A DNA stretch of 63,992 bases, filler included, from Streblomastix strix (Eukaryota): assembly GCA_008636045.1 (NCBI GenBank). It is 4 parts of 4 records of this genome, joined end to end, with 100 filler letters (N's around TTAATTAATTAA, not from the genome) between each part and the next. Parts side by side here need not be neighbours in the genome. Positions count along the whole stretch, not along the records: positions 16,305 to 32,504 come from SNRW01000860.1; 3 more parts are not named here. One strand, given 5' to 3'. Position numbers and translations under genes: made by a program. The notes beneath the pieces are model-generated. The model saw nothing but the letters and a program-made list of their open reading frames with translations, searched no databases and was not told the origin of the DNA. This document shows, one piece after another, positions 16,205 to 61,413 of the stretch. Each line of letters begins with the position of its first letter. Positions within the stretch are counted from its first letter, which is position 1.

Positions 16205-16304
16205 NNNNNNNNNNNNNNNNNNNNNNNNNNNNNNNNNNNNNNNNNNNNTTAATTAATTAANNNNNNNNNNNNNNNNNNNNNNNNNNNNNNNNNNNNNNNN
16301 NNNN
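16205..16304. other. Artificial contig linker
   Basis: 44 N + TTAATTAATTAA (stops in all six frames) + 44 N. Confidence 0.98.
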
Positions 16305-17473
16305 TAATTATATATTATTAATTTGTTTTACTTACAAAATATATTTATTAGCATAAACATGTTGAGAAAACTTGGCTGCAACTTAAAATTAACACGCTGA
16401 CTCTCGCAATTTCATTTATTTATTAAATATAGCATTTTTTCTACAATCACTTCATTTAATATTTAACTAGCATGTATAATACAATATTTTAACTATATTT
16501 ATAATCGAACGCTTTTTTCATAAATTCTACGATAAGCCTGCTCCTAAAATAACTTAAACATATTTGATAATATTTATTACTTTTTCCCCTGATATATATC
16601 AGTTTTCTAAGATATTGTAAATATTTAAACAATTAAATATGCCAAAATACCCGCATTTTTTTAACCTGGTCATGAGCATATTGAATTGTATATTGCATTT
16701 AATTTACTTTTGTTGTGGGGCGGACCCCAAATTATCATATTAACTTTTGAAATTTCGCTCTGGAAATGTATTTCACATTTTCTGAAATTGACAAACCGGA
16801 CGGTTTTGGAAATGCTAATATTTTAATAATTTATTCTCCCATTTTAATTTATTAAGCACAAGGAAAATTTTTATTTTTGCCAAATCATATACATTTCATT
16901 ACCCACGGAACTCTAACCAACCCACACAACCAAATCTCTCTAGGTCAATTTGGCATCCGAAAATTAAAAGTTCCTACGCGCTATAAATGAAAATTCAATA
17001 TAGAATTTGAATTCCAATAAAATTTATATTTCAAATATCAATTTTTTAATTTTTTTAAAATAATTAATTAATAAAATTTTCTATTATCTTTTTTATTTTA
17101 TATTCTGACAAAAAACATTTTATATATTATTATATTCTTTCTTCTATTCAAATATATGGCTGACAATCAAATGAGTTAGATGTTTATTGAAGATAAAATT
17201 GAATTACATAAAAAAACTGATTAATAAAAATCGTAATAAATGCATGATGATCTTTTGACTCAACTTCAATCAATTTCTCAAATTGAATCACAACATTTAA
17301 AATTTGAGGAAGTGAAATAAATTCATGAACATATCAAATAACTTGGAGACGGAAATGAGTTCTCTAAAATTAACATTGAATTATGTAATGAATTTCTATT
17401 TCAGATTGGAGAAGGAAAATCTGAAGAGATTGGAAAGATCAAGTCTTATTCTATCAAAAGTTAAGATTGAATC

Positions 17474-20400
17474 TCAACAAGCTCCCAAATCATCTTCTGG
17501 TAAGGGAGGAATACTAATTGTATAGCAATCATCTCTCGGGTCATGCAGAACACATGGACATTGCAACTTTGGAATACCAACAAGTGTTGTTTGATTTCCA
17601 TAAGGGCAGGTACAGCCTTATGGGTGAAATGATCCATTACATATACAAGAGTCGGGTTCAACTTGCATATTTGATGGAGTTTTGCACTATGTAGTGCATC
17701 CTTTTGGCTTAAATGTATCTGTGCACAAGCAACCATAACTCTAGGAATTTGATGTGCAATCAATTTTATGACATCCAAATGGTTCTGGGTTCGACATATT
17801 TCCGCCAATGCAATTTTTACTTTTTCTGCATTCATTCAACGCATAATACCCATATAGTCCATTAATACTGCAAATACATTCCTGTGGATGGCACTAAAAA
17901 TAGCAGAATTGCCGATATTTTGGATCTGGGTTTTAATCATTAACTCTCTGATCATTTACTATATAAGGACACTATCCAGGTGGGATTCCAGCTGTGCTTG
18001 ATGGATTTGATGGGCATGTGCAATCCTGAGGATGATTTGATCCTGTACAAATACAACCAAAGCCAACATCATCAGAAGTACAAGCTGCTGTTATTAAGCA
18101 ACCAGCAGGCGTAGGAGATCCAAGTGAGCCCCCAGAACAAGGTTAAGGTCCACTTTCACAAGTTGTATCACCAGTTGAACAGATACATGGATGTGTCTAT
18201 GGGAATTATCCTGGTGAGCATTCTTAAAGTGTGCAACCTGCTGGTGTTGGAGCAGTGAAAGTTCCTCCAGTACATGGTTTGTATGCAAGACATGTTGTTG
18301 GATCATATGTTGTTGACAATAAATCACATACACATCCTGCTTATTTATATGTTTCAGTGCATGTGCATCCAACTCCAGAAAAGTCTGATGAACATAAGCA
18401 AGGAGTTGTTAAATCATCATCTACTTAGCATATTCGTGTAATTGGACATTGCGCTCCTATTGTTTATGATCCAGCTCGAGGATCTTCAATTGATTGACAT
18501 TCACATCTATCTGTTTGAATATCAACTAAGTCTTATGGATCATCTGGACACACACATCCATCTGGATCTAAGCCAGGTTTGCAGTTGCATTTATATGTTT
18601 GATCTGCTTATAAACAATCTATTGGAGTGCATCCATTTGGAGAATCGTATTAAGAACATAAACAATTAATTGGCTAATAATTATTTGGTAAACAAAGAGG
18701 AGGGCCTCCACATTCTTCTCTCCAATCATTCTATACACAATTGCATGTTGCTTTTGATGCTACTGTTAATAATATTTCTGGATCTTAAGAGCATATGCAC
18801 CCCAAAGGATTAAACGCATCTGTACAGAAGCAAGAATCAATTGGAACTGATCCTGAATCAGCAGATGTACATAATGGTGTGCATCCTTCTGGGATATTAT
18901 CTTCAATGCACATTTTATTCTTCTAACATTATTCTAAAGACATATCAGCTTGTGGGTGGATGCCGCATGTGCATTATTAGTCTGAATAGACTGATGAGCA
19001 TTGACATCCTATTGGATGAAAGTATGGGTTGCACTTACAAGCATTTGAAGAAGAATTAAAATCACAATAATCAGCAACACAATTTGTAGGGGGTTCTGAG
19101 GAAGAATCATCAGTACAATATGGAGTACACCCAGGTGGAACTGGATTAAGTTCTCCATCAACTCCTACACATGTTTTGGTTGTTCTACAAGATGATAAAT
19201 CATATGATGCTTATTTGTGTTAATCACAAATGCAGTTTGATTGATGAACTATAGATGTGCATGTGCAACCACTTGGTTAATAACTAGCAGTGCAGAAACA
19301 TCCTCTATCTTATGGATTAAGCGTTCCACTTATACAATCTTCAGTAACAGGGCACTCTTATCCAGCTCTCGGATCGTTAGCTACACACGGACAGTCAGCT
19401 TCAGACTAATGCACTAAATCATACTTGCATAATTTATCTTATAGACATACTTCTGGTGGATAAGATACTGATTTAGTATTGCATTAACAGTCTAAAGTTA
19501 GTGATCCTTACACACAATAAGCAGGGCAAAACACATTTGCTCTTGGATCTCCAGAAGGTAAACATGCACATTAACCATTTGGTATTCCATCTAATTCAGC
19601 AGCTGTAGTTGAACAAATACAATCAGATGGGTGATCAGTAGTTGTGCACATGCATGGAATTAATGATGGATTTGATCCAGTTGTACAATTGGGTGTACAT
19701 CCTGATGGGGAATTGGATGAAGTGCAGATGCATGCAAAAGTCTGCGTTGAAGATTCGCATGCAACAGGTGTACAACCAGTTGGTGTTGGATCAGTGAAAT
19801 TTCCTCCAGTGCAAGGTTTTGAAGCTAAACATTCTTAATATGGATATGGGTTATCAGCTCTTGGATCGCAAATGCAATTTGGTGGATAATCAGCGAATTA
19901 ACAATATGCTGGACATTGCGCTCCAATTGTCTATGATCCTGCTCTTGGATCTCCACTTGGAAGACATGGGCATCTATCAGTGGGTGTTTATTAATCCAAC
20001 AAATCGTATGATGGGCACAAACAGCCAGTAGGTGAATGATCGAAACCATTACAGAAACATGAATCTTTAAGAACGGTCAAATCTGAATCAACAGTGCAAT
20101 AATATGTACATCCTTGAGGCCAATCAAATGAAGTGCAGACTTTTAATGCATAACATTACTGAGTTGATAAGTCAACATTTTAGAGATTCCCACATGAACA
20201 AGATTGTGGGTAAGATTCTTTAGAACAGGAACATCCACTTTGATCAGAACCAGGAACGCAAATACAATTCTATTGTTATGAAGGTGAACAATCAACTTCA
20301 TAGCATCCTAATGGTAATAGGTTAGGGTAAGAATAACCTGTACATGGTTGACGACCTTATTAACATATTAAATCACTACCAGCACAGACACAATTATGCG

Positions 20401-22909
20401 TTTCTGGGAATTATCCAGCTTAACAGGTTTGTGTACATCCTTCAGGGATGTTCTATGAAGTACATATCTTAGCTTTTCTGCATACTTCCAAGTCATACGA
20501 TTAATCTTCACTATTACAAAGACAGTCATTGGTTTAATAGTTTGATAATGTGCAGTTGGCAGGGCAGAGATTTCTTTTATCTTTCTCTACACATGGGCAC
20601 ACTGCAATATCAAATACTTACAATTCTTCCAATACTGTTGGACATGTACAACCAGGTGGATGGAATGTAGATGTACAGATGCATCCATAATTCTGATCAA
20701 CAGCTGTGCATTATCCGAGCGAACATTCAAGCGGCCTATAATTCTAAGGGCTATTTCCACTAGTACATGTCTTAGTAGCTCTGCATTATTCTAAAGTAAA
20801 CTATTCATCATCAATTGGACATGTACAATCTTGTGGATGCTATTATATTGTACACAGAGTTGGGCATACTCCAGTTCCAGCTCTGACATCTCCTTCAACA
20901 CATGGACATGTTGTGTTTGGAAGACCAGCAAGATATTCTCCTTACGCACATCTGCATCCAGATGGACTATAATTTTCATTGCATATGCATGTTTCTGGAT
21001 AACTTAATGGATTACTACTAGATGCATTGCATAATGGCTAACAATTTTTCGGTTCATTGTTAATATCACATACTTTTGAAAAGTTGCAATTTGTGGGTGA
21101 AAATTAATTAAACCTGTATTCGTTACAGATACATTCAGGTGGATGAACCTCTTCAGTGCAATATCTCGGACAGAGAGTACCTTATCTTGGATCGTTCATT
21201 GACCTACACGGACACTATGCAGCAGGAATATTGACCAATTATTCAACAGAATCTGGGCATCTACAGCCAACTGGGTGATTGGAAGTTGTGCAAATGCATG
21301 AATCTTCTGTTACTGATGTATCTGAAGGTGCTGTGCATGTCGTGATACAACCATCTGGATGAATTTAATCGTTGCATATACAAGCATACTCCTGATTCGT
21401 GACTTTACAATCTGTAATTTAACATCCATATGGAGTTGGGTCGGTGAAAGTCCCTCCGGTGCATAATTTTGTCTCTCTACAATCTTATATCCCTAAATCA
21501 GTACTATTGTCCAAACTGCATATGCAATCTTGATAATGGTATTACTATGTACAGTAACTTGGGCATAGAAGTCCACCTGATGATGTCGATCGAATGTCTC
21601 CTTCTACACATTGACACCTAGAAGTAGGAATTCTAATTAACTGCGACCAATCTGGTGGGCATTTGCATCCAGTTGGTGAGTGATCATTTGAGCTGCACAT
21701 ACACGAATCGGTTAATACGGTCTATTCAGTTGAAGCTTCACAATCAGATGTGCAACCTTCAGGAATTGGATCGCCTATGCACTTCTTACTTGCTTTGCAT
21801 TATTCGAAATCAAATTCAGCACCACTAATATCATCACATATGCAGTTTTATGGATGATAATCTAATGAACATATACATCCATCACCAGAATAAGATCCAG
21901 AACAAAGGCAGTTAGTTTCAATTGTTCCAAGTTTACATTTGCGAGTAATTGGGCATGTTGAACCTTATCTAGGATCTTCAATTTCATTACAAGCACATGC
22001 TTATGGTGATATTCCAGTCAAATCTAATCCACTACTTGGACAGGTACAACCAACAGGATCAAAACCATTCTTGCAGTTGCATTTGAATGTTTGAAGTGAA
22101 GATTAACAATCTACTGGAGTACAACCACTAGGAGTTGGAGCAGTGAATGTTCCTCCAGTACATAGTTTGGCTGCAAGACATGTTGTTGGATCATAAGAAG
22201 CTGCTGAATTTGTATCGCATATACATCCATCTGGTTTATAATCTTAGGTACATGTACAACCATCTTCAGAAAATTTGTATGAACATAAACAATTTGTATT
22301 TAGTTTGTCTTTATATCCACATTACCGAGTCACAGGGCAGATATTACCTCCTCTTATATCATCACCTGAAATAAATATATGAAGAATAAAAAAGAAAATA
22401 TAATAAATTTGAAATTTATATCAATTAATGCTTAAATTTAAATAGATGATATTTTAAATTACATTATTATAATAATAACAATTAAATTGACCTTATTCAA
22501 TGCACGGGCAAATCTCTTTTGAAATGCCACTCAAAAAATCAGGTATATTGGAACAATTGCAACCTTCTGGCGAATGAACATCAATGCATTTGCAAGTGTT
22601 TAATGGAACTGAAGTCCCAGAACTTTCATTGCAGAAGGGTATTTTTTGTAGTGTTTGATCTGAAAGGCATTGTGCTTTAGTATACTTACCAATTTTGTCT
22701 TCAGGACATTTGCAACCAGTTGGATGCCTGAACCTGGTACAGTAGCAAGACCCATCAACTACAGAAGTGGAAGATAACGCTCCACATGTAGGAAAGCAGG
22801 TCCCCGTGTTGGGCTTGCGCAATGTCTCGGGGCAATTAACGATTGAAATGAAAATGAGTAGCGTTATTAAAATTTAAAACAGATGAAAGTGGTCCAGTCT
22901 TGCCATCAT
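17474..22909 (-). CDS. Large secreted/surface Cys-rich repeat protein (~1770 aa)
   Basis: Signal-like MMARLDHFHLFQILITLLIFISIVNC, then many CxC..HPxGCxC, CPCxxxDPR and CTGGxFTxPTPxGC repeats. One GT-AG intron at 22366-22491. TGA at 17474-17476. Frame continuity was only spot-checked. Confidence 0.85.
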
Positions 22910-23108
22910 TAATATTCTAAATATTCAAAAAATGGAATCAAAATTATAATGAATTAAATGCTATAATTCAATATATGATTGGAAAATGTTCAATTATTTT
23001 TTATGATAGATTTTTAAGCTTCTGCTGCATAAAAATTAAATGAAAGACATGTAAAGATATTAAATTTTGTAATTATATAATAATAAATAATAATATAAGT
23101 AGTATACT

Positions 23109-23468
23109 ATGAAGAAGTTTGGGGGAAGTTCAAAAAGCCATTCATTTTCAAATAAATTCCCAAGAGCAAATGCACAGGCATAGCCCTCAGGTTTGAAAAT
23201 ACGTGATTTTGAACTGCCTCCATACAATCTTCCTCCAAACTATCGAATAGACATAACGGAAAGCAATAATTGTTCACACTAATATAAGGAAAGAATAAAT
23301 ATCATTAATCTGAACGATTTTAAACAATTTGCACACATTAATCCACATGATTATCGAATAAATATATCAGAAAGCATTAATTGTCCACGCCAATCCATAT
23401 AATTAATGGTGTTCATTAATAGACTGTTTTAGGCGCGGCTACGGAGGATTATTCAATTTCGTTTATGA
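23109..23468 (+). CDS. Hypothetical ORF with an internal YRI(D/N)I(T/S)ES(N/I)NC duplication
   Basis: ATG to TGA open under TAA/TAG=Q; no recognisable family. Confidence 0.3.
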
Positions 23469-24099
23469 TTTGGACAAACTGTTATAGTAAATGTGGACAA
23501 GTAATTATACCGTTAATCCTTATTATTTTCCTGTGTTACTATTTAATTAATAAAAATATATTTAAGAGGGGGCATCTCAATCATTAGCGTTTAGTTAATT
23601 TGTATTTTTAAAATATGCTTCAGATATACGTATTATGTCATGTACATGATCTAACATAAAATATAGATTTGAAGCATATTTTTTCTTTGCTTCAGTATCT
23701 TTAATTTCATTATTAAGTTGTTTGTATTCTTATTGCAATTTTGGTTCTAGCTATTTAAAAAACTCATACATTTATTTGTCCATTTTAAATTGGAAACAAA
23801 AATAATATATAATCAAACAGTAAAATTAATTAATTTAGCTAACTTTATTATTATACCTAGGTTTATTATCATTTCAAATATTATGTCTAATTCATTTTTA
23901 CATTGCTTCTGTAATAAAACTGTCAGTTTAATCATAAATTAGCGATTGTCCAATTATTCTTTCAATAATAAAAACTTATTTACAATTATATTATATATTC
24001 CTTCAATATTTTTGAGATTATATTGATTCATTTTTAATATAGGAACAAAAAATAATCGTGTCAATTTAAATCAAAATTAATATCTTTGTACTATTCTTC

Positions 24100-24711
24100 A
24101 TACTATACAGGTTCTTCTTAACATTCATGCGGATCTTAAATTTATTCAATTATTTATTCGTTTTCAATAGTCTATTTAGGTTACTTATATCGTTTAACTT
24201 TTTATTTATATTTTTCTATTCATTTAACAGCATCTTAATGTTATTATTTAATAAATGAATTTTCTGTTCGCAACCTGATTAGTTCTTTTAAATCAAGTTG
24301 AGTATTAGCATAATTAATTTACGGAAATTTAGATATTTTTACTACTTTTTTTCTAACTTATTTCTTTAATGGGTTTTCCCTAACTTCACTTATGGAATCG
24401 TCATCACTTTCATTTTATTATTCTTAAAATTCATAAGATATAAAATCTTCATCTTCATCAATTTATTTTTAAGGTTGTATTTAAACTTTTTTCTTTGGTT
24501 TTACAAAGCTCAAACCTTAGGTTTCCAACCTTCCTCCACGAGGCTATAACAATAACTTATTCTATTATATTTATGTTAATTTTTTAAGTATCTTCTTTCC
24601 TTCTTCGAACACTTTATTACCTCTATTAATTTGGATTACATATCCATTGTCAAAGTATTCAATATTTGTTCCATTTTCTTTCAAATTTTTTTATGCGTAT
24701 TGTAAGTCCAT
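24100..24711 (-). pseudogene. Hypothetical charged/coiled protein of the element
   Basis: MDLQYAQKNLKENGTNIEYFDNGYVIQINRGNKVFEEGKK..EDEDFISYEF..; internal TGA; 3' end approximate. Confidence 0.5.
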
Positions 24712-24734
24712 TTGAGTATTTTTAAGTAAAGAAA

Positions 24735-25950
24735 ATGATAAAGGGCATAGAAAGAAACTCAATTCGAATGTCAAAAACCAAAAAATAAATGTCTGAGATT
24801 AAGCATAAATAACTTACAGATGAAGAAAAAATAAGATTGCAACTGATTAATTATGCAATTAGTCGCATAAATTCAATGTCAAAGATAGGTCTAGAAAAAA
24901 GTGAAACCATAGATGATACTTCTCAGCCTAAAGAAAATATAATTTAAACTGAAAATGAAATTATTCAAGTAACACCAGAATAATTGGTCCTTACCAAATA
25001 AAAATTACTATGTACACGCGCAAATATAATAAAAATAAATATAAATAAATTGATAGAACAACTGCATAAGTTGACCCAGAGGAAGTAGTTAAAAATACTT
25101 ATCTTTTTCATCCAAATCTTGAAGTAATGAAATTCATTATTGATAAATTATGGGCAACAATTACAACAAGAAAAAAGGTGATGATTTTATACTTTCATCA
25201 GACAGTTTTATTAAACTTTGGTCATTAATCACTTAAGAGAATGAAGATGATATTGAAATTGTATTAGAAGAACCATTAATGAGATCCTATTCATGTATAG
25301 GTTAATCATATAAAAAGAAGGATCTAATAATAGTAATAGATGTGTTAATTAAAATGTTAGCATATCAGTTATTAATAATGTTCTTTTTAATTCTATTAAG
25401 AAACTGTATCGAATTAATAAAGATTTTGTTAAGTTGTCTGATGAACCTACATCAGAGATTTCCAAAGATGGTTTTTGAAATAATTATTTTTGCTGTCATT
25501 TTTATTTTACTTTTAATTATTTTTACTGGCAACAAAAATTCTTACACAGTCTGAAATTGCTAGAGGAAAATTGCTCAAGAAATCTTTAAATATTGCAAAG
25601 AAAATATGTGTTCAACCTATATATTAATGTGGTGATGATTTCTATTAACGAACAGTAAATAAATTCGTTAAATCATATTATATATTATTAAAACAATATG
25701 GGAATAGACCTGCTGAATATCCATAAACAGTTTATATTATGATCGAGAAAAGAAATAATGGACATATTGATGACACAATTACATCATATACTCGTTAGAT
25801 GAAGAAACTTATAGATAATACATCTAATTATCCAATGCGAAACTTAAGTGAAGATGATGCAGTCAAATATAGGAAACTAAAAGAAGCAATTAGTTAAATG
25901 TAAGAATAAACAAAATATAATTAGTACGATTAATGTGGAGTAAAAAAAGA
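24735..25950 (+). pseudogene. Hypothetical protein(s) of the element, frameshifted
   Basis: MIKGIERNSIRMSKTKKQ..; segments AQVDPEEVVKNTYLFHPNL and EEPLMRSYSCIG lie in shifting frames. Confidence 0.45.
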
Positions 25951-26199
25951 AGCTAATTGTATATAATACTATATTAATGAAACCTGATGTTTAAGCTAAG
26001 CTATATGATTACTCCTTATTTTTGCAATAAAAATGGAATAATAATTAAGCGATTTAGATATGATTGATGATGATGAATAAATTATTTAGTAATAATAGGT
26101 AAATTAACTAATAAAATAATAAGAAGAGAAATATAAAAAAATTAAAGAACGTTACATATAATTATAAGTTACTGTTAATGAGATAATAAAGTACTTTAA

Positions 26200-26791
26200 T
26201 TATTTAAGTTAATTCTTTAGAAATTATATTGATTTTGTTAATTTACGTTCTAACTAGATTAATCGTGGAGAAAAGACATTTTGATAACCTATAATAGCTA
26301 GTAAAATTATTTAATAAGGTGGAACAATTAACTAAATTCTATTAGCTAATGGATATACTATTGATAAGGATTAATTAGATTATGAACCTATTGAAAATGC
26401 ACGTTATTCATCAATTGCTTAAGGAATGTATGAGTAACGAATATGGGGTACAGTAACAACATAAAATAGTAGAGTATATATTTCTCTGTTAATAACTTAT
26501 TCTGATTTTAATACAATATGGTAATCAGGATATATTTTATTTTAAATCGTTGAAAATGCTATAAACCCAAAATTCACTGCAACACTTAGTATCATACCAT
26601 TAACTGCAGTTATGTTTGCGTAAATAGTTTAAGGTTATCCAATATGCTAGAATGGTGCTGATCCTATAGATTGTTACATTTACTCTAATGGAAATATTAT
26701 AATAAATACAATGTGTTAGCTAAGTTTTGCTGATGATTTTTGTGTATAGGTATGTGATTCATATGCTATTCATAATTAGTCAGCTAATTGA
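26200..26791 (+). pseudogene. Short tail-fibre-like protein
   Basis: NQINRGEKTF, then GGTINQILLANG (26318-26353), then a beta-rich C-terminal domain ending in TGA at 26789-26791. Both motifs have counterparts in the fibre gene at 29295. Confidence 0.55.
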
Positions 26792-26957
26792 CAAATTTAA
26801 AAATAATCAAATGAATCCAATAAACGAAACCATCATCTATTCTCTTGAATAATTGAACGTTAATTTGCATGCAATCTTTAAGACTACTTGGGAAGCAGCA
26901 ATCAAACATACATGAGAATCAAAGATATGCCACTGAAAAATAAATTCATTTTTGCTA

Positions 26958-28944
26958 TCATTGTGGTTAAATAAATGCTTTTGCAAGCTCTTCAACAACA
27001 TCAATATTTAGTACTTATGGCTTTGAACTATCATCAAATATAATTCTAACAAACGCATCACACACTTAATGCATCATTGGAGTAATAGATGCATTATTTG
27101 GATCAGAATATGCTCTTGTTCCAATGAATTATTTGAAATCATTTTAGATCTATGATGGACTTATATTAGTTGTATCAATAATTCCTTTAGTCAAACTTCC
27201 TTACAAAATCATTAATACATTAGTTCTAGAACCTATCTTTGAAGAGTTACATCCTCGCATAAATGAATCATCTGTAGCCAATTTCCATGCAAGCATATAT
27301 TTATTTGGATAAAGTGTTCTAATAGCTTAACTTCCACGATACAAAGTTGTTAAATAGAATAGATCAGATGTTTTATATAAATTGTCATTATCTACCCTTA
27401 TAGAAATGGCTTTTATCATAAAAATTCAAATTTTCAAATATAAGTGAATGATACAGATCTGATCGTGCACTAACAACATCTTAATCAACGAAGCAGTCAA
27501 ACATTTATCCATTAGTTGCTTAATTCAATGATTTATATAGTTATGGGATAATATTATTCTAATCAATGACCAGATTAAGTCCTGGGAATAATCCTGGGAA
27601 AAACCATGTTGGATATTAGGGCATAGCAAATGTCATAAATAATGCATTTATGTTAGAGAATGGCATAATGCTTTACATAGATCCACTATTTTTATCAAAT
27701 CAACTAAATTGAAAGTTTGATGATTATGTTACAAATACTTATGTAGGAAAGTTAATTATTTTTTGTTATTGAATCACATTAATTACTGTATCTTCATTTT
27801 AATTATTGAAACATACGTTCTATATCTCCAAAACATCGAATTTAGCTTTCTAAATTTAACTAATTGAATTTTGTAGTATCTTATCACCAATAGTCGCATT
27901 TTACATATTTACAATTCTTATATTATATCTCTGATATTCAAGAGTCATATTTACTTCTCCTCTTTCAGTTAAAAGATAAACAATATCAGGTTTCTCAGGA
28001 GAAATCATATGATAAGCTAAATGATTATTTTATACTGTATCATTTTTATTAAGCCAAACAACCTTCAAATCTTATAGCAAATGTTATATCCATAATTATA
28101 GATGTAATGTTGCATAATTACGAATAAGAACAGGAAATGAATTAAATATAGGATTTAATTAGTTAAGTTCAAGTACTCCACCAAATGTAATATCGTTAGG
28201 AATTTTATAATAGAATGGTGTTGCTGTAGTTTAAACAGTTGCTTATATATCAATTTCACAAAGTGATATATCAATAAATACTCCACAATGAAATTTTCCT
28301 TCAATTATACTTTCAAAAGGTGTAACTCAAACGCTATTTTTAGTGTAAAAATCATTAAAAGAACTTCCACCAGTTACCGCTTATTTTCATGCATACACTG
28401 CAGATACACATAGCGCTGTTGCATCTTTTATTAGTTAGAAGTAATATGATGGTCAGCACGCGGTTTAGAAACCAATCCAAAATTATAGATGTTCTGATGA
28501 TTTAATCCCTACAACTGATTTACTATAATATTTTTATATAGCTTATGACATATTTGTAGTCCAATCAGCTGTTGGATCTTCTTTGCCATTGAAATTAGTT
28601 CGTGTGTTTTGTTTTGCTGTAGTATCCCATCCTGTAGCTGTTTCATTTAATTATATCGCTAAAATGTTTGCAGATATTGTGAATGTCCAATTTACTTAAC
28701 AAGTTTATATCAATAAACATGCAAATTTACCTCTTGCTCCTAATGGTGCTCTAGTATATTTAACTCCACTGGACGTAAGTTCAGTAATAGGAGAATCGAA
28801 GAAATTTTGCTTTGATAGTTCAAATGATAGTGGATGAATAGATATTGTTTCTAGAACTTCTCCAAGTTATATATATATACTAACTTAATCGGAATGTGCT
28901 ATTTTCGATAATTGTCCAAGATAATCACTAGATATGAATGACAT
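26958..28944 (-). pseudogene. Putative major capsid protein (double jelly-roll?), ~660 codons
   Basis: MSFISSDYLGQLSKIAHSDQV..NWTFTISANIL..FWIGFQTA..HCGVFIDI..FMTFAMPQYPTWF..YMLAWKLATDDSFMRG..TPMMHQVCDAFVRIIFDD. The capsid call is inferred from size, beta-strand patterning and context. Internal TGA (e.g. 27700-27702) and a frameshift near 27380. Confidence 0.5.
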
Positions 28945-28963
28945 TTCAATAAAACAAAAATTA

Positions 28964-29238
28964 ATGAACTAAAATCCAAGACTAAGCTTCGTTAAGAGAT
29001 GGTTATGTTAAAAGTTTTTATAATAAATCAAATGGGTTTGTTCACTGGAATTGTAAATTTTGGGTCAAAAATATTAGATGATGTTAAGAAAGCAGCTTAA
29101 TGGGTTGCACCAGCATTGCATAAAGTTTTGTTAACAATATCAGGTCCTGTTGGAATGATTCATCTATGAATTGGAGGAGCATTAGGTGCAGGAGCTAACC
29201 TTACAGGTGCTGTTGATAGATTAGTTAATAAACACTGA
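28964..29238 (+). pseudogene. Small Gly/Ala-rich amphipathic-helix protein
   Basis: From 29032: MGLFTGIVNFGSKILDDVKKAAQWVAPALHKVLLTISGPVGMIHL*IGGALGAGANLTGAVDRLVNKH*. An upstream ATG at 28964 is in another frame. Confidence 0.6.
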
Positions 29239-29294
29239 GCATTTATGCCCGCCAACAAAATTGGTAATAATAATCAATTTATTTTTATTGAAAC

Positions 29295-31432
29295 ATGAAT
29301 AATACATTATCCCAACAATTAATCTGTTAAGTTAGATAGTTAATCACTAATAATATAGCATATTATATTCAATATTAGAAACGAGGTAACTCTAGTGGTG
29401 AAATGATGTCAAATGAAGAGTATTAAATATTCATCGATAATAACAAATCATTAGTTTACGTCACTAATATTTAAATCGTTGATGGAATGGGATCAGATTT
29501 TGCACTATAAATAGAACCTAATGAATTGCTAGCGATAAAGAATTTGAAAGTGATTAATTTTGAGTTTGTTGCATAGATTAATTAGTTGATTAATTAAGTG
29601 AATTTACTACAACAATCAATTGGGACAACTGAATAGGATATTACTGATATAAAGAATGATTTTGATACCATTAATCAATAATTATCACGATAAACACATT
29701 TCCGAGGATATTATTTATTGAATAGAGATCTATAAAATTTACCTAATTCCGCTAATGGTGATTTTTCATTTAGTACTGAAAGCGGAACAGTAAGGATGTA
29801 TGAATAAAATTGGTATAATGGTGGAGATATAGTTCCAGATCAAGTAACGCCTGCAAGTGATGCCACTCCATTAGCTGATGGTACTGCAACTGCAGGAATT
29901 AGCACAGAATATTCACGTGGAGATCATGTTCATCCACTAAACGTAACAACTACCATACCGATTAGCGATTCTGCTAGTGGTTCAGTTGGTACAACTAACT
30001 ATTATGCAAGAAACGATCACTCTCATCCACTCAATATAACAAATTCAATACCTCCACAAGATAGTGCCAGTGGATCAGTTGGTACAACTAACTATTATGC
30101 CAGAAACGACCATTCTCATCCAATTAATGATGAAATTAATGCTTCAAATATCCCAATCGTTAATGGTGTTGGTGCTAATGGAACTTCAGCTTTTTACGCT
30201 AGACACGATCATGTTCATCCATATCAATTAACTAATGATGAAAGTGTAACTGTGACTAAATTTATTAAAACTGGTGGAACAAATAATGATTTATAATTAG
30301 CGGAAGGAACAACTAAATAAATAACAGATTTCAACTCAAGTATTGCATCAGTCATTTAATAAATCAATCCTCATGATGGTATACATTGGTAATGCCTTGC
30401 TGTATTAACAATACCTGATTATAAATCTGTTTGGTCATTCGGATGTACAATTGATATTAATAATTTTTTTATCATGATTTATTTTATCAGCTTAAGTAGA
30501 ATCTTAGAATATAGCTCGGATTTTCTAAGTAATTTATTGCTACACAATTTGGTTCAATAAAAATAGATTTTATGGTATGAGCTGATTTTCCTGAAACATC
30601 ACTTATTTTGAGATTCTACATGAAATCAAATCACATATCCTATTATAAGATTTGGACCATTAATTTATCATAATTTGCTGATGCTGCTGTTCGTGACAAT
30701 TTTGTACTATAAGATAATATAAATTAATATAATATAACTACTTATACATTACCATCTGGTTCATAATTTGCAGGTACCACTATATAAAATAAATTCACTA
30801 ACAATGGTGGTACAATTAATGGTAGTATTTAAATAAATCCTACAGCAACTAGTTATGATGATGGTTTGAGAATATCCAGATCTGAAACAGATACAGATAA
30901 TTCATCGATTTAGTTAAGATGGAGTTGATCATATAACACAGAACTTACTGAAGGATAATGAGCAATATTTACACCATCAAATACGGCAATAATTAATTTT
31001 TATGGTTTATTAATTGCAGTGGCATCTTAAGCTGGCGATAATACAGGAGGATTATAAATATGCACAGATGTAAAAAAATTAACATTTAATGGTAATGGAT
31101 TCGTTGATTTACCAATTGATTAAACAATAAAAGGAATGAAATCATTCGAAAAATTAATATAAGTAATTCCAACATCAGATGGAGCATATAACGAAGCGAT
31201 ACGAATAAGTAGGCCAACAAAAAACTAATGGAGTAATATATAATTTGGTTGTGATCCATATTCAAATTCTGGGTCTTTTGATAATAAATGGTCTATAGGA
31301 ACTTCTGGAAATGATGCTGCAAATCGTCTCGGTTTTGTCATCGTAAAGGCAGGATAAGTAGGTTCATCTAATAGAGGATTATAAATAACCGCTGATGGAA
31401 ACACATTATCTTTCAATGGACGGGTTCTTTGA
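29295..31432 (+). pseudogene. Phage-tail-fibre-like protein with RxDHxHP repeats
   Basis: N-terminal coiled coil; four Y(S/A)RxDH(V/S)HP repeats at 29910, 30003, 30096 and 30195; FIKTGGT; DQTIKGMKSF; two tandem C-terminal modules (xxRISR..GLQIxxD..L(T/S)FNG). Stops and a frameshift in the 3' half. Confidence 0.7.
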
Positions 31433-31879
31433 TTATACTTTATTTTTGAAATAAATGGAAAAGCTGTAACATAATCGATAAAACAATTGTTCAATGAATT
31501 AATTAAATAGCATTTTTAAGATAATAATACAATTAAATATACAATAGAAGCATTATAAAATTTGTTAAAGAATGATGCAAAAGCATCAATCCATCCATTA
31601 CTCTAAGAATTAATGAGAATCAATAAAATGTTCACTAATTATTAACAATAATTACAAAATATAAAGAAAATAGTAGATGAGAAAGATTATTAAAATAAAT
31701 TATTTAATGAATAGGATAAATACTTCAAAAATATATATCTATTAATTAAAAAGTTAATAAATCTAAACTATTAACTATAATAAATAAACAAATACATTAT
31801 TTCTGATGCTATTGAAGAAGAGAAATAGATTTACAAATAATTTCTGAATGATGAGTAATGCAGTAACTGTGTCAGATAC

Positions 31880-32504
31880 TATTCTCTTCAGAAGATACCT
31901 CTTAATGGGGAAAAATTTAATCTAAAATAATTTGATTATTTACATATTAGATATTTTCGATTATATATTTATTTTTATCTTACATTGGATTGTGAGAACA
32001 AAAGCTAAAATGTTATAACATCATATTATATCTACTTTTATCATTTTAATCTAATTCAATCATAAATTTCCATGGAATTACAGTATTCGTGTTAAGTGCT
32101 TAAAATATTTTGAATATCTCATAATCAGACGCATCATATTTATCTCCAATTGTTTTTGCTAAACTATATATATCATCCACTTAATTTATTTCAAATAATT
32201 TATTTTATGAGTTATTTAACATTATAAGAGACAAGATATATCTCCAATGAGTTGCCAATTCCAAATCTTCATTTGATATTGCTTCGTTCAGAAACGTTTC
32301 GATTTATTCTACAGATAATTATGGCCAATGTATTCTTGGTTAATTTTTATCCATATTTCTTTTGTAAAAGAATTGTATAATACAAATTGTTATATTTAAT
32401 GGAACCAATTCTATATCAAAATAACTCCTTAATGTTTTTACTACATTAACTGTATCCATTAATTTATCAGGAATTGATACAGATATAATTGATGTTACAA
32501 AAAT
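31880..32504 (-). pseudogene. Hypothetical protein of the element (5'-truncated)
   Basis: Long open frame ..IPDKLMDTVNVVKTLRSYFDIELVPL..PRIHWPQLSVEQIETFLNEAI..; no family recognised. Confidence 0.45.
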
Positions 32505-33809: not shown

Positions 33810-36650
33810 TCAATGAATATATAGACAAAATTAATTGAAAAAAGAGAGGAAGAAATAATTTTAGTGAATTAAAATACATATAAAATAAATTCATAATTAT
33901 AAGACGTATGTTGTTAAAGCAAAATAAGTGATTAATTATTTTTAAATTGAATCAACATGATTAAGATTTTAAAGAATATCGTAGAAAATAAATAGTAACA
34001 ATAAGCTGATATATATTGGGATGATATATAAATTGAATCGATAATTACATTAAGATTTAACTGATTATCATTCAAATTAATATGAATAAGATTTATAAGA
34101 ATATCGTAGAGAATAATCGTAATAATAAGCTAATGAATTCTGGACTGATTATGTCATTAAAGAACAGGATCCAGTCTATAGAATAATGAATATTGAATAT
34201 GAAGTGAATATTCAATACTAAATAATTGCTAATCAAAATATAGAGATTAATGATTAAATTTTATTGTACGATGGACAGAATGTTTAATGAAATATAAATT
34301 GATGCAGGTATTTTATTATATTTTCTTCTTAAGAGTATGGAACAGTTTATTGCTACAGTTAGAACAGCAAGAAAAGGTTTTGATCTTAAACGTACAATCG
34401 ATTAAATTGAAGCTGAAAGAATATTTAGCAAATTACATTACGATAATGATATTTAGTCATTGACAGAGATTGCAGAGTTTGTTAATGAAGTTTATAAAGA
34501 ATTACACCAATAAGCATTCAAGATTCAATTCAATTTTTGAGTCATTTACGAAGAAAATAAGTACGATTAATATGATTTCGTTTACGTTGATTATGAATAT
34601 ATGTTACCTACAGATACTTGTATACAAGAATATACTCCTAAAGTTATATAATTAGAAGATGATAATGATGAATATGATCAATACATTAAATCTGAGACAA
34701 TAAATATATAGAACTATACATTAGATAGTACATTGTAACGATATATAGCTATCTATTCAATGATGATTAATACAATTAATCTTTACCCATAAATTGTTGG
34801 CGCTAGTATGAAAGAATTAATCGATTTTCATTGTATTGGTCGCAAAAAAGTTATATATAAAAATACAGTAAATAATAATAATTGTTATATTGAAGCAATA
34901 ATAAAAGCATTACATCCTTACACGAAAGAGAAACATTATAAAAGGGAATCAATTATAAACATTAATAGAGAGTATTTAGTTTAAGTATTAGAACAACCAT
35001 TCAATTCAAAGAGTAGAAAAATGACAGATTTATTGAAGACTTTTGATGGATTAGATATAATTAAATACGTTAATATAGTATCATAAAAGTTAAAAGGTAA
35101 CTAAGAAATTTAATATTACGATAATGAACATAAGAGTTATTATAGAGGACTAAAGATAAGGTATTAATGTGAAAACAAAAATGAAAAATAAAAGAGTATT
35201 AAGACTATCGATATATTAGTTGTTGAATCGATTTAGGAAGGAAATAAGATATCACATGCATTTGCAATAGCTAATAAATATGCATTAACTGGATTGAAAT
35301 TTATCCATATTGTAACTCAAAAGCATTCGATCCTAAAGATAATAATTACTTAAGAGACTATGAGAAACACATTATAAAATGTGAAAATAAAGAAGAAAAA
35401 ATTGTTAAGAAAGTTAAATTAGATTATATATAATAACCTTTTGTTCTACATATTATGTAGAATAAAACTTACCAATATCTATTAACAAATGGAAGATAAC
35501 ATGAATTTAAACCTACGCAATACTTTATCATATACGATCTTGAAATAGTTCCTAAAATCGTTAATAAAAAGTTCAATAACCAAGCTATTAAATGTATGAA
35601 CTTTTTCCTTTATCAATTGCAACAACTATTCGTAACAAATAAGGAATTAAGAAAATCTTCTTTAGCTACTAAAATGGAAATGATTTTATAATTTAATGGT
35701 TAAATTAGTTATTTTAGGAAGCTGAGTAAGTTAATGCTGATAGTCAATACATTACTGACTCACACTATTGATGAAACAATTCCTTATTCAATCGAAGTAC
35801 CAATAGTAAGATTCAATAGCTCAAGATTTGATATATCATTAATCATATCATAAATGTAATGTAAAGATTGGACAATCAGTAATTATATTGGTAGCCCTAC
35901 AATAGCAAAACAAGTAATTGTACATCATAAGAAATTGAATTTGAAAGTGAAATTTGTTGATATGTTAACATATCTTTAACCGATGGAATTAAAGTAAGCA
36001 GCAAAAGATTTTAGAGATGGATACGATGATAAGAAAGGAATATTTCCTTATGAAACTTTCAACACTGATAACGTTAATGAAGTACTTAGTAAATCAGAGC
36101 CATTTTCAATGGAAGATTTCAATTCATCATTAAAGAAGACAAAAATTAGTTAGTAGGATTACTAAATTTATCTTGAAGATGCAAAACGATTTAAAAATAG
36201 ATGGGACTATTTACAGTACTATAACGAATAAGATACTTACATAATGATCAAACCATTAATGACTCTAATTAGCTTACAATTTAAATATAAGATTGATATG
36301 TTTAGCTTCATGAGTATGGCTGCATGCTCTAATGCTATCAAATATGCTAAAGCCTATGAGGATTTTGATATTAATGGTGTATATCCTAATTTTGAAGATT
36401 TATCATAGAAATTTTACTTAACAGAGAACTATTGGTAGAGTAAAGTGCGTGGATATCAAGTCTAAGATAAACATTAAAGATGAGATACAACAAATAACGT
36501 TTAAGATAAGGATTTCGATTATTTCAATCAATTATTCAAAGTTTCTAATTGCAGCATTTGTGGACGCAAAATAAAGATTTGGAAATCATTAATTATGCTG
36601 ATAGCTCTTCAATAGCTAAGTTAGTAATTATATATCATAAAAAATTAAAT
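33810..36650 (+). pseudogene. Second protein-primed PolB: N-terminal and exonuclease part only, truncated
   Basis: AFKIQFNF, NNNCYIEAIIKALHP (~34873), PYC..EKHIIKC zinc finger, ExoI YFIIYDLE (35521), ExoII FNSSRFD (~35812), KKGIFPYE (36031), ExoIII YYNEQD (~36217). It breaks at CSICG (~36550-36565). The start is uncertain. Confidence 0.85.
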
Positions 36651-49791: not shown

Positions 49792-51429
49792 TCACCATAA
49801 CATCAGTAATGGAAGAATTACTGTTGCAGTGATTAAGATCAGTGAAATACGTATTGTTCCTGCTGCTTCACATGGATCATCAATATCACATGCATCTCGT
49901 GGATCTCCGCTAGCTAAGCATGGACAATCTGACGTTAATGTCGTAGAAGTTGGTCTTGCACAGTCGGGTTTTGGCTCACAACCAACACGAGGATCATCTT
50001 CAGCAAGACATGGGCAGACATCTTTTGATATACCAGTTGTAGGATGAGCGCAATCTGGTTTTGTCTCACATTCACTTCGAGGATCACTGTCGCGACATGT
50101 GCATTGACCAATTGGAATTCCTACTAACTATTCCGTCTCTTCTGGACAGGTACAATCATCTGGATGGTATTATGATGCGCAAATGCATCCCTATGTTGGT
50201 AATGTACCACTTGTACATGATGCAAAAGGGCACAATTCTCTCTAATCACCCAAAATGCATTTGCACTAACCTCTGTCTATACCAACAAGATCTTCTGCAT
50301 ATTCTGAGCACCAGCATCCATTAGGATGGAATGCCTATGAGCATATACATCCCTAAGCAGGGATGGAATCACTTGTGCATGCAACTGGTGCGCATTCACC
50401 TCTCAGATCGTTTGCTATGCAACCACATCTACTCTTTGGAATATAGCGTAAACCTTATGCAGAATTTGGGCATATGCACTTCTCTGGACTGTATGACTAT
50501 GTGCATTAGCATCCAAACCGATAACTTTCAGTGCTTGTGCAAGATGCTGGTGGCTCAACATAAACTCTTATACCATAAATCATTGGCCATGTTGAATAAA
50601 CTTCAGAAAGCATTTGCAAATTATTCGCTCCTTCCCGATACAAAGATTTGTATGAAACTAATCCTGAGTCTGGATCGGTTTCCCACCCATAATAAATCTT
50701 AAATAAGTTTTCCTATAAGTTCGATGCCCAAACAGTTCCAAATCTTACAATCATCTTCCTAAGTTAAGTCTCAGTAAACCCTGATTCTTTTTCAGCAGTG
50801 TACATCTTTAACTTTGATCCATATGAGTACATAGCATCACTATTTGCGCATGTAGCTTTGCATGAATCGCCGTAATTACCAGTTCCATAGCAACTTAATG
50901 GTGTAACTCCTACTATTCTCTACTATCCATTGTAGATCTAATAACATCCTCTATCCATTTGACGTGTTTCACCATTTGGATTCAATGCAGAGTAAATCTT
51001 TTCATATGTAGGAAGACAGTTAAAGTAATGAAGAGCGCTTGGTTAAATGTCTTCTCCGTAATATACAAGAGTATTTGCAGCTTCCATCTCCCAATATCTT
51101 TTATTATAGTAATCATAAACATTACGGCACGAACTCTGGTATTAATTATAATTGTAAGATTCGTATACTGCGAAGTTGGAAGCTTGTGTAAATGTGTCAG
51201 GAATGACAGAAAAGTTTTCTGTTTGCCAACTTCCACCCCATGGATTCACTCCATCATCCGTATCAACATCAATAAATCCTTCATTTATTCTTAAATCTCT
51301 GGTTACATAAGTACCTTCCATATACCAATTTGGAAAGCGATACATATCAGCATTTAGCATTATCAGAAGAGAAACAATAATAAAAAACCTGTTTAATATA
51401 AAATAGAGAAAGTGAAGAATTATGATCAT
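49792..51429 (-). CDS. Surface protein: signal peptide, degenerate papain-like domain, Cys-rich repeats, GPI-like tail (545 aa)
   Basis: Single-exon reading: IPDTF, QYQSSCRNVY, PSALHYFNC, RGC, CKATCANSD, MIVRFGTVW, KIYYGWE; then HP..CxC and CPC..DPR repeats; ends AGTIRISLILITATVILPLLMLW-TGA. Confidence 0.85.
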
Positions 51430-59099: not shown

Positions 59100-60925
59100 T
59101 TTGGTTTGATGAGCTATCCGGGACCGCCAGGGATGGCCCTAGACCATTAGTACACAAAATTAAGATCGAGATATCTCTTCGGATGTAAATAATGGATAGT
59201 CCCTCCAACATAAACAAACCCACAGAGCTAGATTACACCTTACCCGAACTAGAATTGAAGCTGAATTTTGAATGTTGATTTCATGAGAATGTTTACAAAC
59301 CCATTTTCAGTTCCGAAAGGAATGTAACATCAATAGGTTGCAAGAGAAGCAGCATAGGTTCATCATAAACCGAGAGAGACTTTTCCAATAAATGGAAATG
59401 CAAGAAAGATAGCGTTTTCTAGGGACTGCATAGTTCGGGGTTAAGTAGCGATTACTGGAATTAAACAAATATATATCCTGAAAAAACATTCTACTTAACT
59501 CCTGCGAACTCCAATTCGTGAACCAAAAGTTGAAAAAGGAGGATGAATGATTCCTGTATGAAGTAAATCCACAAGCACTAATACTTCTGCTGTCGCAAAC
59601 TAGAACTTGAGAGAAGACAAATAGCACTGTCAGCCAAGAGAGAAGCTCAGTCATCATTGGACTAATGGAAATTCAGAACTGAATAAAGTAGGAGATTCCT
59701 ATACGAGAAATCATTCTAAGGATAATAATAGAGAAAATGTTGCAACTTCAACCGTAATTGAGAATGTGGGAAGAGACAATTCGTTATCTTGAGATGTTGA
59801 AACTGGTTAAATAAGTGAAATTTATACTAAAAGAGCTTTTCTACTATTCAAAAACGAGGACTGAGAAAAGAGATTGTAAGAGAAACTAAGAATTTGTCCG
59901 TTCTCAGGCTCAAGAGAAGAGGAAATAGCATATATGGAGAAAATAGAGGTAGAATTGCGAGAAAACATAAAAATAAATATAATTAAAATACGCTGAAATG
60001 CAAAACCAAATAATAATTCTGAAATATCGGAGGAAATGGAAGAAAATTCAGTATATGAGTTCATTGAAAAGAAGAGATTTAATCGATTCATTCTAAGATG
60101 CAGGGAACAGATCAAGTGAGAGATTTGATAAGGAAAGGAGACTGGACAACAATTCAAGATCTAAAGTTGACTTTTCACCGCCAAATAGTATATCCACCGA
60201 GCAAACCTTACCAAGCATTAGAAGTAATAAGGAAAGTTTACTAATATAGAGAAATTCCGTTTGGGACACAGAATTCACTATTCTTTTTCGCGCAGGCATT
60301 AGCAATAGTCCTATTTAGAACATGGAGAGTGTCGGATTATAGAATCCTTAACTATGTAGACGATCTGCTCATCCTACATTAGAACAAAGAAAGATTGCGA
60401 GAATAAACTTTGACAATAATAAGAATTTTGGAAGCATTTGGGTGGATAATAGCTCAAGAAAAATGCGAAACAGAACCAAAACTACATCTTAACTTCTAAA
60501 GATGTGCTTGGGACTTGAAAAGGATGTACATAAAGATGACAGTCCTAAGAAAACAGGAACTACGCTATTAATTAAGGAGATTTATCAGCCTAACATAGAG
60601 ACAAATTCCGATTAAGATAAAATATATAGCATAGATAATACGCAAGTTGAATTTTCTAAGAATCCAAGTAAGAGAAACTTCCTTTTACTTAAAACTAATT
60701 GACTCAGCAAAAACGAGGGCTCTGAAGAATAAAGAGTGGAAAGAGAATATGATTCAGCCTAAGGAAATCCTTCAAGAGCTTTTTTAGTAGTGGGGAGCAA
60801 TCTCGAGAAATTAGGAGGTGACTTTAGATGTTAGAATTCCAGAAGCAGTAATGGTATCAAACTCATCTCCGAAGGGTTGGGGAGTGACTCTGGAGCTACA
60901 AACAAGGGATATTTTAGTCCAATAT
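59100..60925 (+). mobile_element. DIRS-like retrotransposon fragment (RT and start of RNase H)
   Basis: GKWKKI, YQYREIPFGTQNS, RILNYVDDLLI (YVDD at 60353-60364), VMVSNSSPKGWG; truncated at ~60925. Confidence 0.85.
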
Positions 60926-61413
60926 AAATAAATGATATAATAAATTAGTTAATTTAATGTTCTGTAAATCGTTTTTATTAATTATTTATGAAAAAAATTA
61001 AAATATTTTTCATTAAATATGATATTACTGATATTGTATAAAATATACAATCAAATCACAAAGTATTTTAATAAAAATAAATGCAAAATATACTTAAGAT
61101 CAAGAAAAATATATCTAATTTAGTTGAAGGAAAATAAAAAATATAAATATAATATAAATAAGTTGTTAAATATAATATAAATAAGTTGTTATATTTAAAG
61201 TTTTTCCTGAAAATTAATTATAAAATACAAATTTAAATAAAAATTAAAAATAAAATTATATTTGAACAAGAGATAAAAAATTACAAAATAAAAACTTATT
61301 AAAACAATTTCTATTATCAAAAAAAAGTAAAATAAAAAATAAATATATCATTGAAAATCATATTTAACAGATATTTCAACGAATTTAAATTAAAAAATAA
61401 ATATTTTGATAAA

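Follow-up and report, generated by a model that had tools for sequence, protein, structure and literature searches.

Streblomastix strix is a termite-gut protist in which both TAA and TAG are read as glutamine. One locus in its DNA raises the question of how a gene built like a bacteriophage tail fibre, with His-x-His (HxH) repeats, came to lie in a eukaryotic genome, to which element it belonged, and what it did. We investigated a window of 63,992 nucleotides (the whole stretch of DNA analysed), which consists of four contigs joined with N spacers at 16205, 32505, and 48802; the fibre gene lies on the 16.2-kb contig at 16305–32504. We consider it likely that this gene, now broken, once encoded the fibre by which virions of an endogenous Polinton-like virus (PLV) of S. 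strix attached, a protein predicted to be three-chained and probably made up of a virus-native anchor and shaft pieces shared with phages.

The Fibre Gene and Its Decay

The sequence features listed in the initial annotation were all found again (table 1). The four RxDHxHP repeats start at 29916, 30009, 30102, and 30201, with spacings of 93, 93, and 99 nt, and these are the sole occurrences of the motif in the six frames of the 64-kb window. FIKTGGT lies at 30261, and the QTIxGxKxF motif at 31121 reads QTIKGMKSF. The duplicated C-terminal module of about 90 aa shows 37% identity between its two copies across 90 aligned aa (pairwise E = 3e-11), and a helix of about 49 residues was modelled at the position expected for the coiled coil.

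Table 1. Features of the viral element and its flank, in positions of the window
Feature	Position	Strand	Basis or remark
Flanking host gene, long Cys-rich protein, code 6, several pieces	17474..22909	-	Left of the element
Endogenous viral element, approximate extent	22968..32504	.	Contig spacers and depth rise; right end cut by contig end
Gene of the major capsid protein (likely double jelly roll), now split over several frames	26958..28944	-	Relatives and match to L031 capsid
Small gene with amphipathic N-terminal helix, TGA at 29167; likely membrane-penetration peptide (putative)	29032..29238	+	68 codons
Fibre gene, code 6	29295..31432	+	Broken: one frameshift (~30465-30476) and three TGA (30578, 30926, 30959)
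N-terminal domain, common to fibres of the related PLV group; likely capsid-vertex anchor (putative)	29295..29545	+	Profile-profile match
Coiled coil	29544..29690	+	Helix 76-124 in model of relative P0005; heptad-spaced contacts in three-copy model
Gut phage/prophage-type cassette: coiled-coil end, HFRGY domain, first HxH unit	29628..29948	+	Sequence identity
Tandem array of four 31-33-aa units, each closed by RxDHxHP; candidate metal sites on the axis	29850..30221	+	Motif, His conservation, predicted contacts
FIKTGG..LAxGxT spacer, conserved border ahead of the variable domain	30261..30325	+	Relatives compared
Variable central domain, type A of 8; contains the frameshift and one TGA	30330..30790	+	Relatives compared
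C-terminal module 1, two TGA inside	30818..31093	+	Module alignment
QTIxGxKxF spacer	31121..31147	+	Motif
C-terminal module 2; also in a Bacteroidales protein and, via that protein, viral contigs	31154..31429	+	Pairwise match

Under code 6 the gene occupies more than one frame. Comparison with relatives placed the shift within a T-run, and the TGA codons lie in the 3′ frame; the NCBI model of this very gene (P0024) bypasses the breaks by predicted introns. The frameshift, as well as the border between the core and the type A central domain, is crossed without a gap by another contig, assembled separately though probably from the same sample, and therefore an assembly slip is unlikely. This copy is a pseudogene from which no full protein is possible, likely a decaying fossil.

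The glutamine codons had been described as TAA and TAG, which holds for 38 of the 49 in the fibre, while the other 11 are CAA or CAG. The TAA/TAG share of Gln codons was 0.75 in two capsid pieces and 0.56–0.74 in three host genes. Code 6 is thus common to the whole element and the host, and its use by the endogenous viruses of S. strix is already published (Bellas et al. 2023, PMC10120064), so we see no sign of gene-specific recoding. The suggestion that the fibre gene was recoded into the host code as an event of its own was rejected, because the fibre, capsid, and host genes all use code 6.

The Element and Its Surroundings

The likely capsid gene that adjoins the fibre locus has 133 relatives, and the automatic UniRef name "Major capsid protein" stands on 9 of the 120 among the matches listed. 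Three capsid pieces of the window match the capsid of L031 (E down to 8e-14), a metagenome contig that uses the standard code and carries a capsid, a small peptide, a P-loop ATPase after the capsid, and a fibre-like gene. A model of this L031 capsid, a full-length homologue with 26% identity, matched Sputnik/virophage and NCLDV capsid clusters of the Atlas with TM-scores of 0.50–0.59, and by features it matched Atlas clusters from Parabasalia and Preaxostyla. The direct model of the S. strix capsid family was poor (pLDDT 48) and had no fold match, and a viral-contig scan with the capsid gave 0 of 92 candidates. The virus-like element of L031, L032, and L033, which has the standard code, a capsid 26% identical to the S. 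strix family, and an ATPase, also contains three tandem paralogous genes of about 210 aa and a fibre with QTISGxKTF-type repeats and without the HxH cassette.

The small gene lies upstream of the fibre on the same strand, with the capsid gene divergent from it, and gene callers fuse the small peptide to many fibre relatives. Its hydrophobic moment of 0.60 was reached by 6 of 10000 shuffles, and a homologue follows the capsid gene in L031 (3824–4054) and L032. We take this amphipathic peptide to resemble membrane-lytic virion peptides such as adenovirus protein VI.

The fibre had been assigned to a eukaryotic element, and two observations agree with a mobile viral one: the adjoining capsid gene and the linkage of the two genes across S. 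strix contigs. Among the 39 listed fibre models on contigs of at least 7 kb, 9 share their contig with a listed capsid model, against under 1 of 39 expected by chance on a rough estimate. At the left edge of the element (~22968), summed contig depth steps from 25–75 to about 2000 or more, which is a hint only. As the gene beyond this edge is a eukaryotic Cys-rich gene, the element sits in eukaryotic DNA. It is integrated, multi-copy (at least 395 relatives of the fibre), and written in the host code. In this decayed and cut element, no penton was found by Pfam among 21 open frames or by PHROG among 17; a packaging ATPase, which relative L031 has, was not found on the contig, nor were terminal inverted repeats, the right end of the contig cutting the element. 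Taken together, the element is most likely a decayed endogenous PLV.

Several other features of the window were recorded. The host encodes long proteins with Cys-rich repeats, which probably lie on its surface, at 17474–22909 (-) and at 49792–51429 (-). A degenerate 30-nt tandem array of about 30 units occupies 6905–7974, and a reverse-transcriptase fragment (Pfam RVT_1, E = 1.2e-10), probably of a decayed retrotransposon, lies at 60098–60991 (+). Polymerase-like motifs occur on other contigs of the window only: two of them carry broken genes without a Pfam match (1067–4524 and 34601–36483, both on the plus strand) that contain DLYFNSLYP and KQILNS, presumably family-B DNA polymerase-like motifs with a possible endonuclease VII-like insert. 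These genes are probably other decayed copies of Polinton-type elements.

The N-Terminal Domain

A search with the L031 fibre gave 77 proteins, five of which have the same N-terminus, and a profile was built from six fibres. Compared with the S. strix N-terminus (41 sequences), this profile gave a profile-profile probability of 91% (E = 1.1e-6), and among 362 proteins its top 40 rows were all S. strix fibres. Earlier single-sequence tests against the L031 fibre were weak: one gave E = 0.019, and another failed to reach significance among 169 ORFs and ranked 2 of 2001 when shuffles were used for comparison. Among 120 phage-type proteins, the best match to the domain had an E-value of 0.012. We infer from its position and from its homology with PLV fibres that the domain of about 85 aa is a virus-native capsid-vertex anchor.

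One of the six fibres, the 1055-aa P0409 from outside S. strix, has the PLV-type N-terminus as well as the HFRGY and HxH cassette, and its C-terminus, in which further HxH pairs occur, is T4 gp10-like (Pfam Gp10_C, E = 1.8e-12). P0409 and P0399 rule out that the HxH cassette is restricted to S. strix among PLV-type fibres.

Parts Shared with Phages

The initial annotation had suggested acquisition from bacteriophage and a profile search against phage fibres. Neither the fibre nor the neighbouring genes had a match above cut-off in Pfam or PHROG, a PDB sequence search with the fibre returned coiled-coil matches only, tblastn found no match for it among GenBank phages, and a viral-contig scan with P0001 was blank; 59 relatives searched against Pfam, PHROG, and PDB gave weak and scattered matches. 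Against these blank profile scans stands the cassette: fibre residues ~112–218 were 46% identical over 110 aa to a fibre gene adjoining tail-collar and tape-measure genes, a prophage fibre whose cluster is named Alistipes finegoldii (WP_349095476.1 cluster). In the best rows, the cassette of about 105 aa was 39–52% identical to gut phage and prophage fibres. When the Alistipes-type fibre was used as the query, the best 120 of 121 proteins all matched P0001 and none matched the 3′ half. HxH was single in 107 of the 120 phage-type proteins listed, and pairs were never closer than 75 aa. On viral contig L015 two HxH units are about 37 aa apart, and thus tandem units are not unique to the S. strix fibre family.

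Phage gene context was seen at L001, L017, and L020, and the remaining cassette proteins presumably share it. In the phage-like contigs L018, L020, and L021, labelled Bacteroides, very long fibre genes lie just downstream of the head genes and contain two to four copies of the coiled coil, HFRGY, and HxH cassette. The full cassette was present in 5 of 9 genome loci, three labelled Bacteroides and two Clostridia, and many named homologues are Bacteroidales (Alistipes, Bacteroides, Tannerellaceae). Matches were scarce: counting the centre genomes, 3 of 401 genomes of Bacteroidales had one and 1 of 400 of Clostridia, and no enrichment in Bacteroidales is shown by these counts. Atlas leads for the phage cassette were all under 0.9, PF22337 (Phage_fiber_rpt) having 0.88.

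The C-terminal module was 35% identical, across 75 aa, to a protein of Bacteroidales (pairwise E = 1e-9), and via that protein it matched 5 viral loci or contigs; a direct viral-contig scan with the S. strix modules gave 0 of 91 candidates. The gene of the Bacteroidales protein lies among housekeeping genes, with no evident prophage within 20 kb.

In a tree of the cassette (96 columns), 15 S. strix rows fell on one side of a branch with support of 93–96, and a single clade of P0409 and S. strix was not rejected (p-AU 0.72). Since the tree is unrooted, the direction from phage to PLV and the date of the transfer are our inference. The capture of the cassette may be older than S. strix, as P0409 already has it. 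An origin from phages fits pieces of the shaft, which match phage fibres, but the N-terminal domain matches the fibres of related PLVs, and the gene as a whole was not taken from a phage.

The Fibre Family and Its Central Domains

A search with the 5′ half of the gene (7993 candidates) gave a family of at least 395 proteins; all 120 among the matches listed, which include the model of this locus, are from S. strix. The initial annotation had proposed to compare repeat number and C-terminal modules across copies for signs of cassette shuffling. The HxH array turned out to be mostly constant in length: 67 of 73 complete arrays have four units, five are one unit shorter, and one is longer, which rules out a strongly variable repeat number for most copies. 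P0026 and P0028 have at least 10 and 8 units, respectively. The modules did vary in some copies, and contig joints revealed copies that omit or duplicate a C-terminal module. In 410 repeats, found with a His-free anchor, the two histidines were retained in 399 and 397 (about 97%).

Downstream of the FIKTGG spacer, the relatives carry unrelated-looking domains. By motifs chosen by eye, 54 of the 75 extractable cores were assigned to eight central types (of which C1 and C2 are related); the other 21, truncated or spliced models, were left out. Mapped on a quick tree of the 54 cores, the eight types require 33 changes, whereas the minimum is 7 and the mean of shuffled assignments is 36.1; 33 or fewer changes occurred in 12 of 200 shuffles. 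Type A, that of the window, changed at least 4 times across starred branches. The central types are thus scattered over the core tree, as expected if domains are shuffled across copies. Summed contig depth was about 17,000–42,000 over the core versus 98 over the central domain, which is not a copy number and a hint only. The main caveat is that chimeric joins may have formed at the conserved border; the gene models used for the mosaic test are those of NCBI, from an assembly rich in repeats. The mosaic itself is observed; recombination between copies at the conserved FIKTGG border probably accounts for the swapped central domains.

Predicted Structure and Candidate Metal Sites

A trimer model had been proposed as a check on the three-chain fibre. 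Such a model was made from residues 5–330 of the close relative P0005, in three copies only, with zinc and without use of an alignment. It scored 0.59, compared with 0.00 for the best of three controls; as a prediction, this agrees with a three-chain fibre. In calibration, 21 of 30 solved self-pairs but 0 of 23 single chains attained the mark, and for eukaryotes this calibration is weak (1 of 7 without an older solved relative). The runs had 87% or more of their contacts in common, pLDDT was 69 or higher, and the contacts extend along the whole length; isolated contacts inside the motifs include, in copy 2, His203, 205, 236, 267, and 300. The fibre is accordingly predicted to self-associate as three chains, and the score may reflect memory of, or likeness to, solved fibres.

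The monomer model of P0005 had a pLDDT of 59, with the HxH part under 50. Its five top rows among PDB folds were all T4 gp34, not significant (best E = 0.021), and 13 BFVD matches had E ≤ 0.001, the two best named being phage tail proteins, with TM-scores of 0.15 or less. A wide structural search with the fibre model returned coiled coils only.

The HxH repeats had been likened to the axial metal sites of T4 gp12 and gp37. His-x-His pairs within a predicted three-chain fibre uphold this comparison at the level of the motif, but the 31-aa unit is different, and no sequence match to gp12 or gp37 was found by the Pfam, PHROG, and PDB searches. Paired histidines of gp37 bind iron on the axis (as cited in PMC11705849). 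By analogy with that protein, the HxH units would likely form a metal clamp.

Proposed Function and Alternatives

In the intact virus, the N-terminal domain would have docked on the capsid vertex, and the predicted coiled coil would have started trimer assembly. Each of the four HxH units would contribute two histidines per chain to a six-His axial metal site and so clamp the shaft, while the central domain and one to three C-terminal modules would set the binding target. That these last parts determine what the particle binds seems to us somewhat favoured on present data. Recombination at the FIKTGG border would swap central domains among copies, as phages swap fibre tips.

The family could instead have been domesticated by the protist as an adhesin, for example to anchor ectosymbionts, with diversification as in families of surface antigens. 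The variable domain, the existence of hundreds of variants, and the host-like Gln codon use would suit such a role. However, the fibre genes are tightly linked to those of the capsid and the peptide, both this copy and the genes around it are decayed, inspection by eye reveals neither a signal peptide nor a membrane anchor in the fibre sequence, and fibres of a virus-like element with the standard code have a homologous N-terminus; we regard domestication as highly improbable. It is also very unlikely that single-cell metagenomics created the mosaic, or even the gene, as an artefact, either by joining sequences into chimeras or by including DNA of a contaminating phage. Near-identical copies are very numerous in the assembly, which is a MAG, and the fibre gene has phage homologues; yet TAA and TAG are both read as Gln in 38 of its 49 Gln codons, the contig runs on into a eukaryotic gene, the adjoining capsid is of the jelly-roll type, and the separately assembled contig spans the border between core and central domain. 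As for the HxH units, they might be structural or pH-sensing repeats that hold no metal, given that the 31-aa unit has no sequence match to T4 gp37 or gp12 and that the three-copy model did not score zinc. Nevertheless, both histidines are kept in nearly all repeats and stand in predicted inter-chain contacts, and the gp37 pairs do bind iron (as cited in PMC11705849), so that repeats without metal appear unlikely.

A further proposal refines the reading as a viral attachment fibre rather than opposing it: phage-type parts would attach to the ectosymbiotic Bacteroidales on the surface of Streblomastix, this bacterial coat would be the virus's route to its host, and domain swapping would keep pace with changes in the symbionts' surfaces. 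Streblomastix does bear rows of filamentous Bacteroidales ectosymbionts (PMC2717939), named homologues are often Bacteroidales, the C-terminal module occurs in a Bacteroidales genome, and a precedent is known in the DSLV2 virophage, whose fibre binds Synechococcus LPS (PMC12724248). However, the common cassette is probably shaft rather than tip, two of the five full-cassette genome loci are labelled Clostridia, matches are rare in both groups of genomes, and none of them is named as a termite-gut symbiont. Moreover, with a clade of P0409 and S. strix not rejected, the capture may predate S. strix. We therefore find such hitch-hiking doubtful. Its fullest form is quite unlikely in our judgement: hundreds of endogenous virus copies in S. 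strix would be a recombining library of fibre tips, in which one metal-clamped shaft, derived from a phage HxH unit by tandem expansion, carries one of at least eight interchangeable domains that bind the changing Bacteroidales coat. If true, it would amount to a phage-style host-range switch in a eukaryotic virus.

Relation to Known Fibres

Phage-like modular fibres have been described across PLVs (Bulzu et al. 2025, PMC12220804), and Ltf of PgVV/Gezel-14T was found in particles (bioRxiv 10.1101/2022.07.28.501842). Like the S. strix fibre, these are products of long modular genes with phage-fibre-like parts, expected to form homotrimers on the capsid vertex. In contrast, the S. strix fibre has no match above cut-off to the S74 chaperone, laminin G, collagen, or PTR, and its tandem 31-aa HxH array and eight alternative central domains have no counterpart in the available descriptions of PLV fibres. 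The "Metamonada" capsid group of Bellas et al. (2023, PMC10120064) comes from the same host and uses code 6, and the capsid relatives found here fall in Parabasalia and Preaxostyla clusters; the words fiber, fibre, and tail have 0 occurrences in the main text of that paper, whose supplements may annotate these fibres.

Gut phage and prophage fibres share with the S. strix fibre the coiled-coil end, HFRGY, and one PxxDG..G.S..YxRxDHxHP unit (39–52%), whereas their N- and C-termini differ, their code is standard, and their HxH is mostly single. The HxH metal sites of T4 gp37, gp12, and gp10 resemble the His-x-His pairs of the predicted three-chain fibre, and T4 gp34 was the top, non-significant PDB fold match; the S. 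strix pairs lie in the proximal shaft and not at the tip, the repeat unit is different, and there is no sequence similarity. The gp37-like tail proteins of the DSLV2 virophage (Chu et al. 2025, PMC12724248) likewise unite a small eukaryotic DNA virus, a phage-related fibre, and a bacterial partner on or near the host, but they form a heterotrimer of three genes with reported LPS binding, while the S. strix fibre is one gene with different parts.

Our literature search found no oxymonad Polinton fibres and no HxH in virophage fibres, which the supplements of Bellas et al. (2023) and Bulzu et al. (2025) may annotate, and no tandem HxH array or central-domain swapping in PLV fibres. Phage-like PLV fibres and the use of code 6 in S. 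strix viruses were thus known already, and the tandem array and the swapping were not found described.

Host recognition by PLVs is little understood, and the S. strix family lets the parts of a fibre be traced: a virus-native N-terminal domain, a cassette about 45% identical to that of gut phages, and a central domain whose variation within one host genome is independent of that of the core. If long reads confirm the mosaic, it would represent phage-style fibre shuffling in an endogenous eukaryotic virus population and would provide, for binding tests on the protist and on its bacterial coat, a ready panel of domains.
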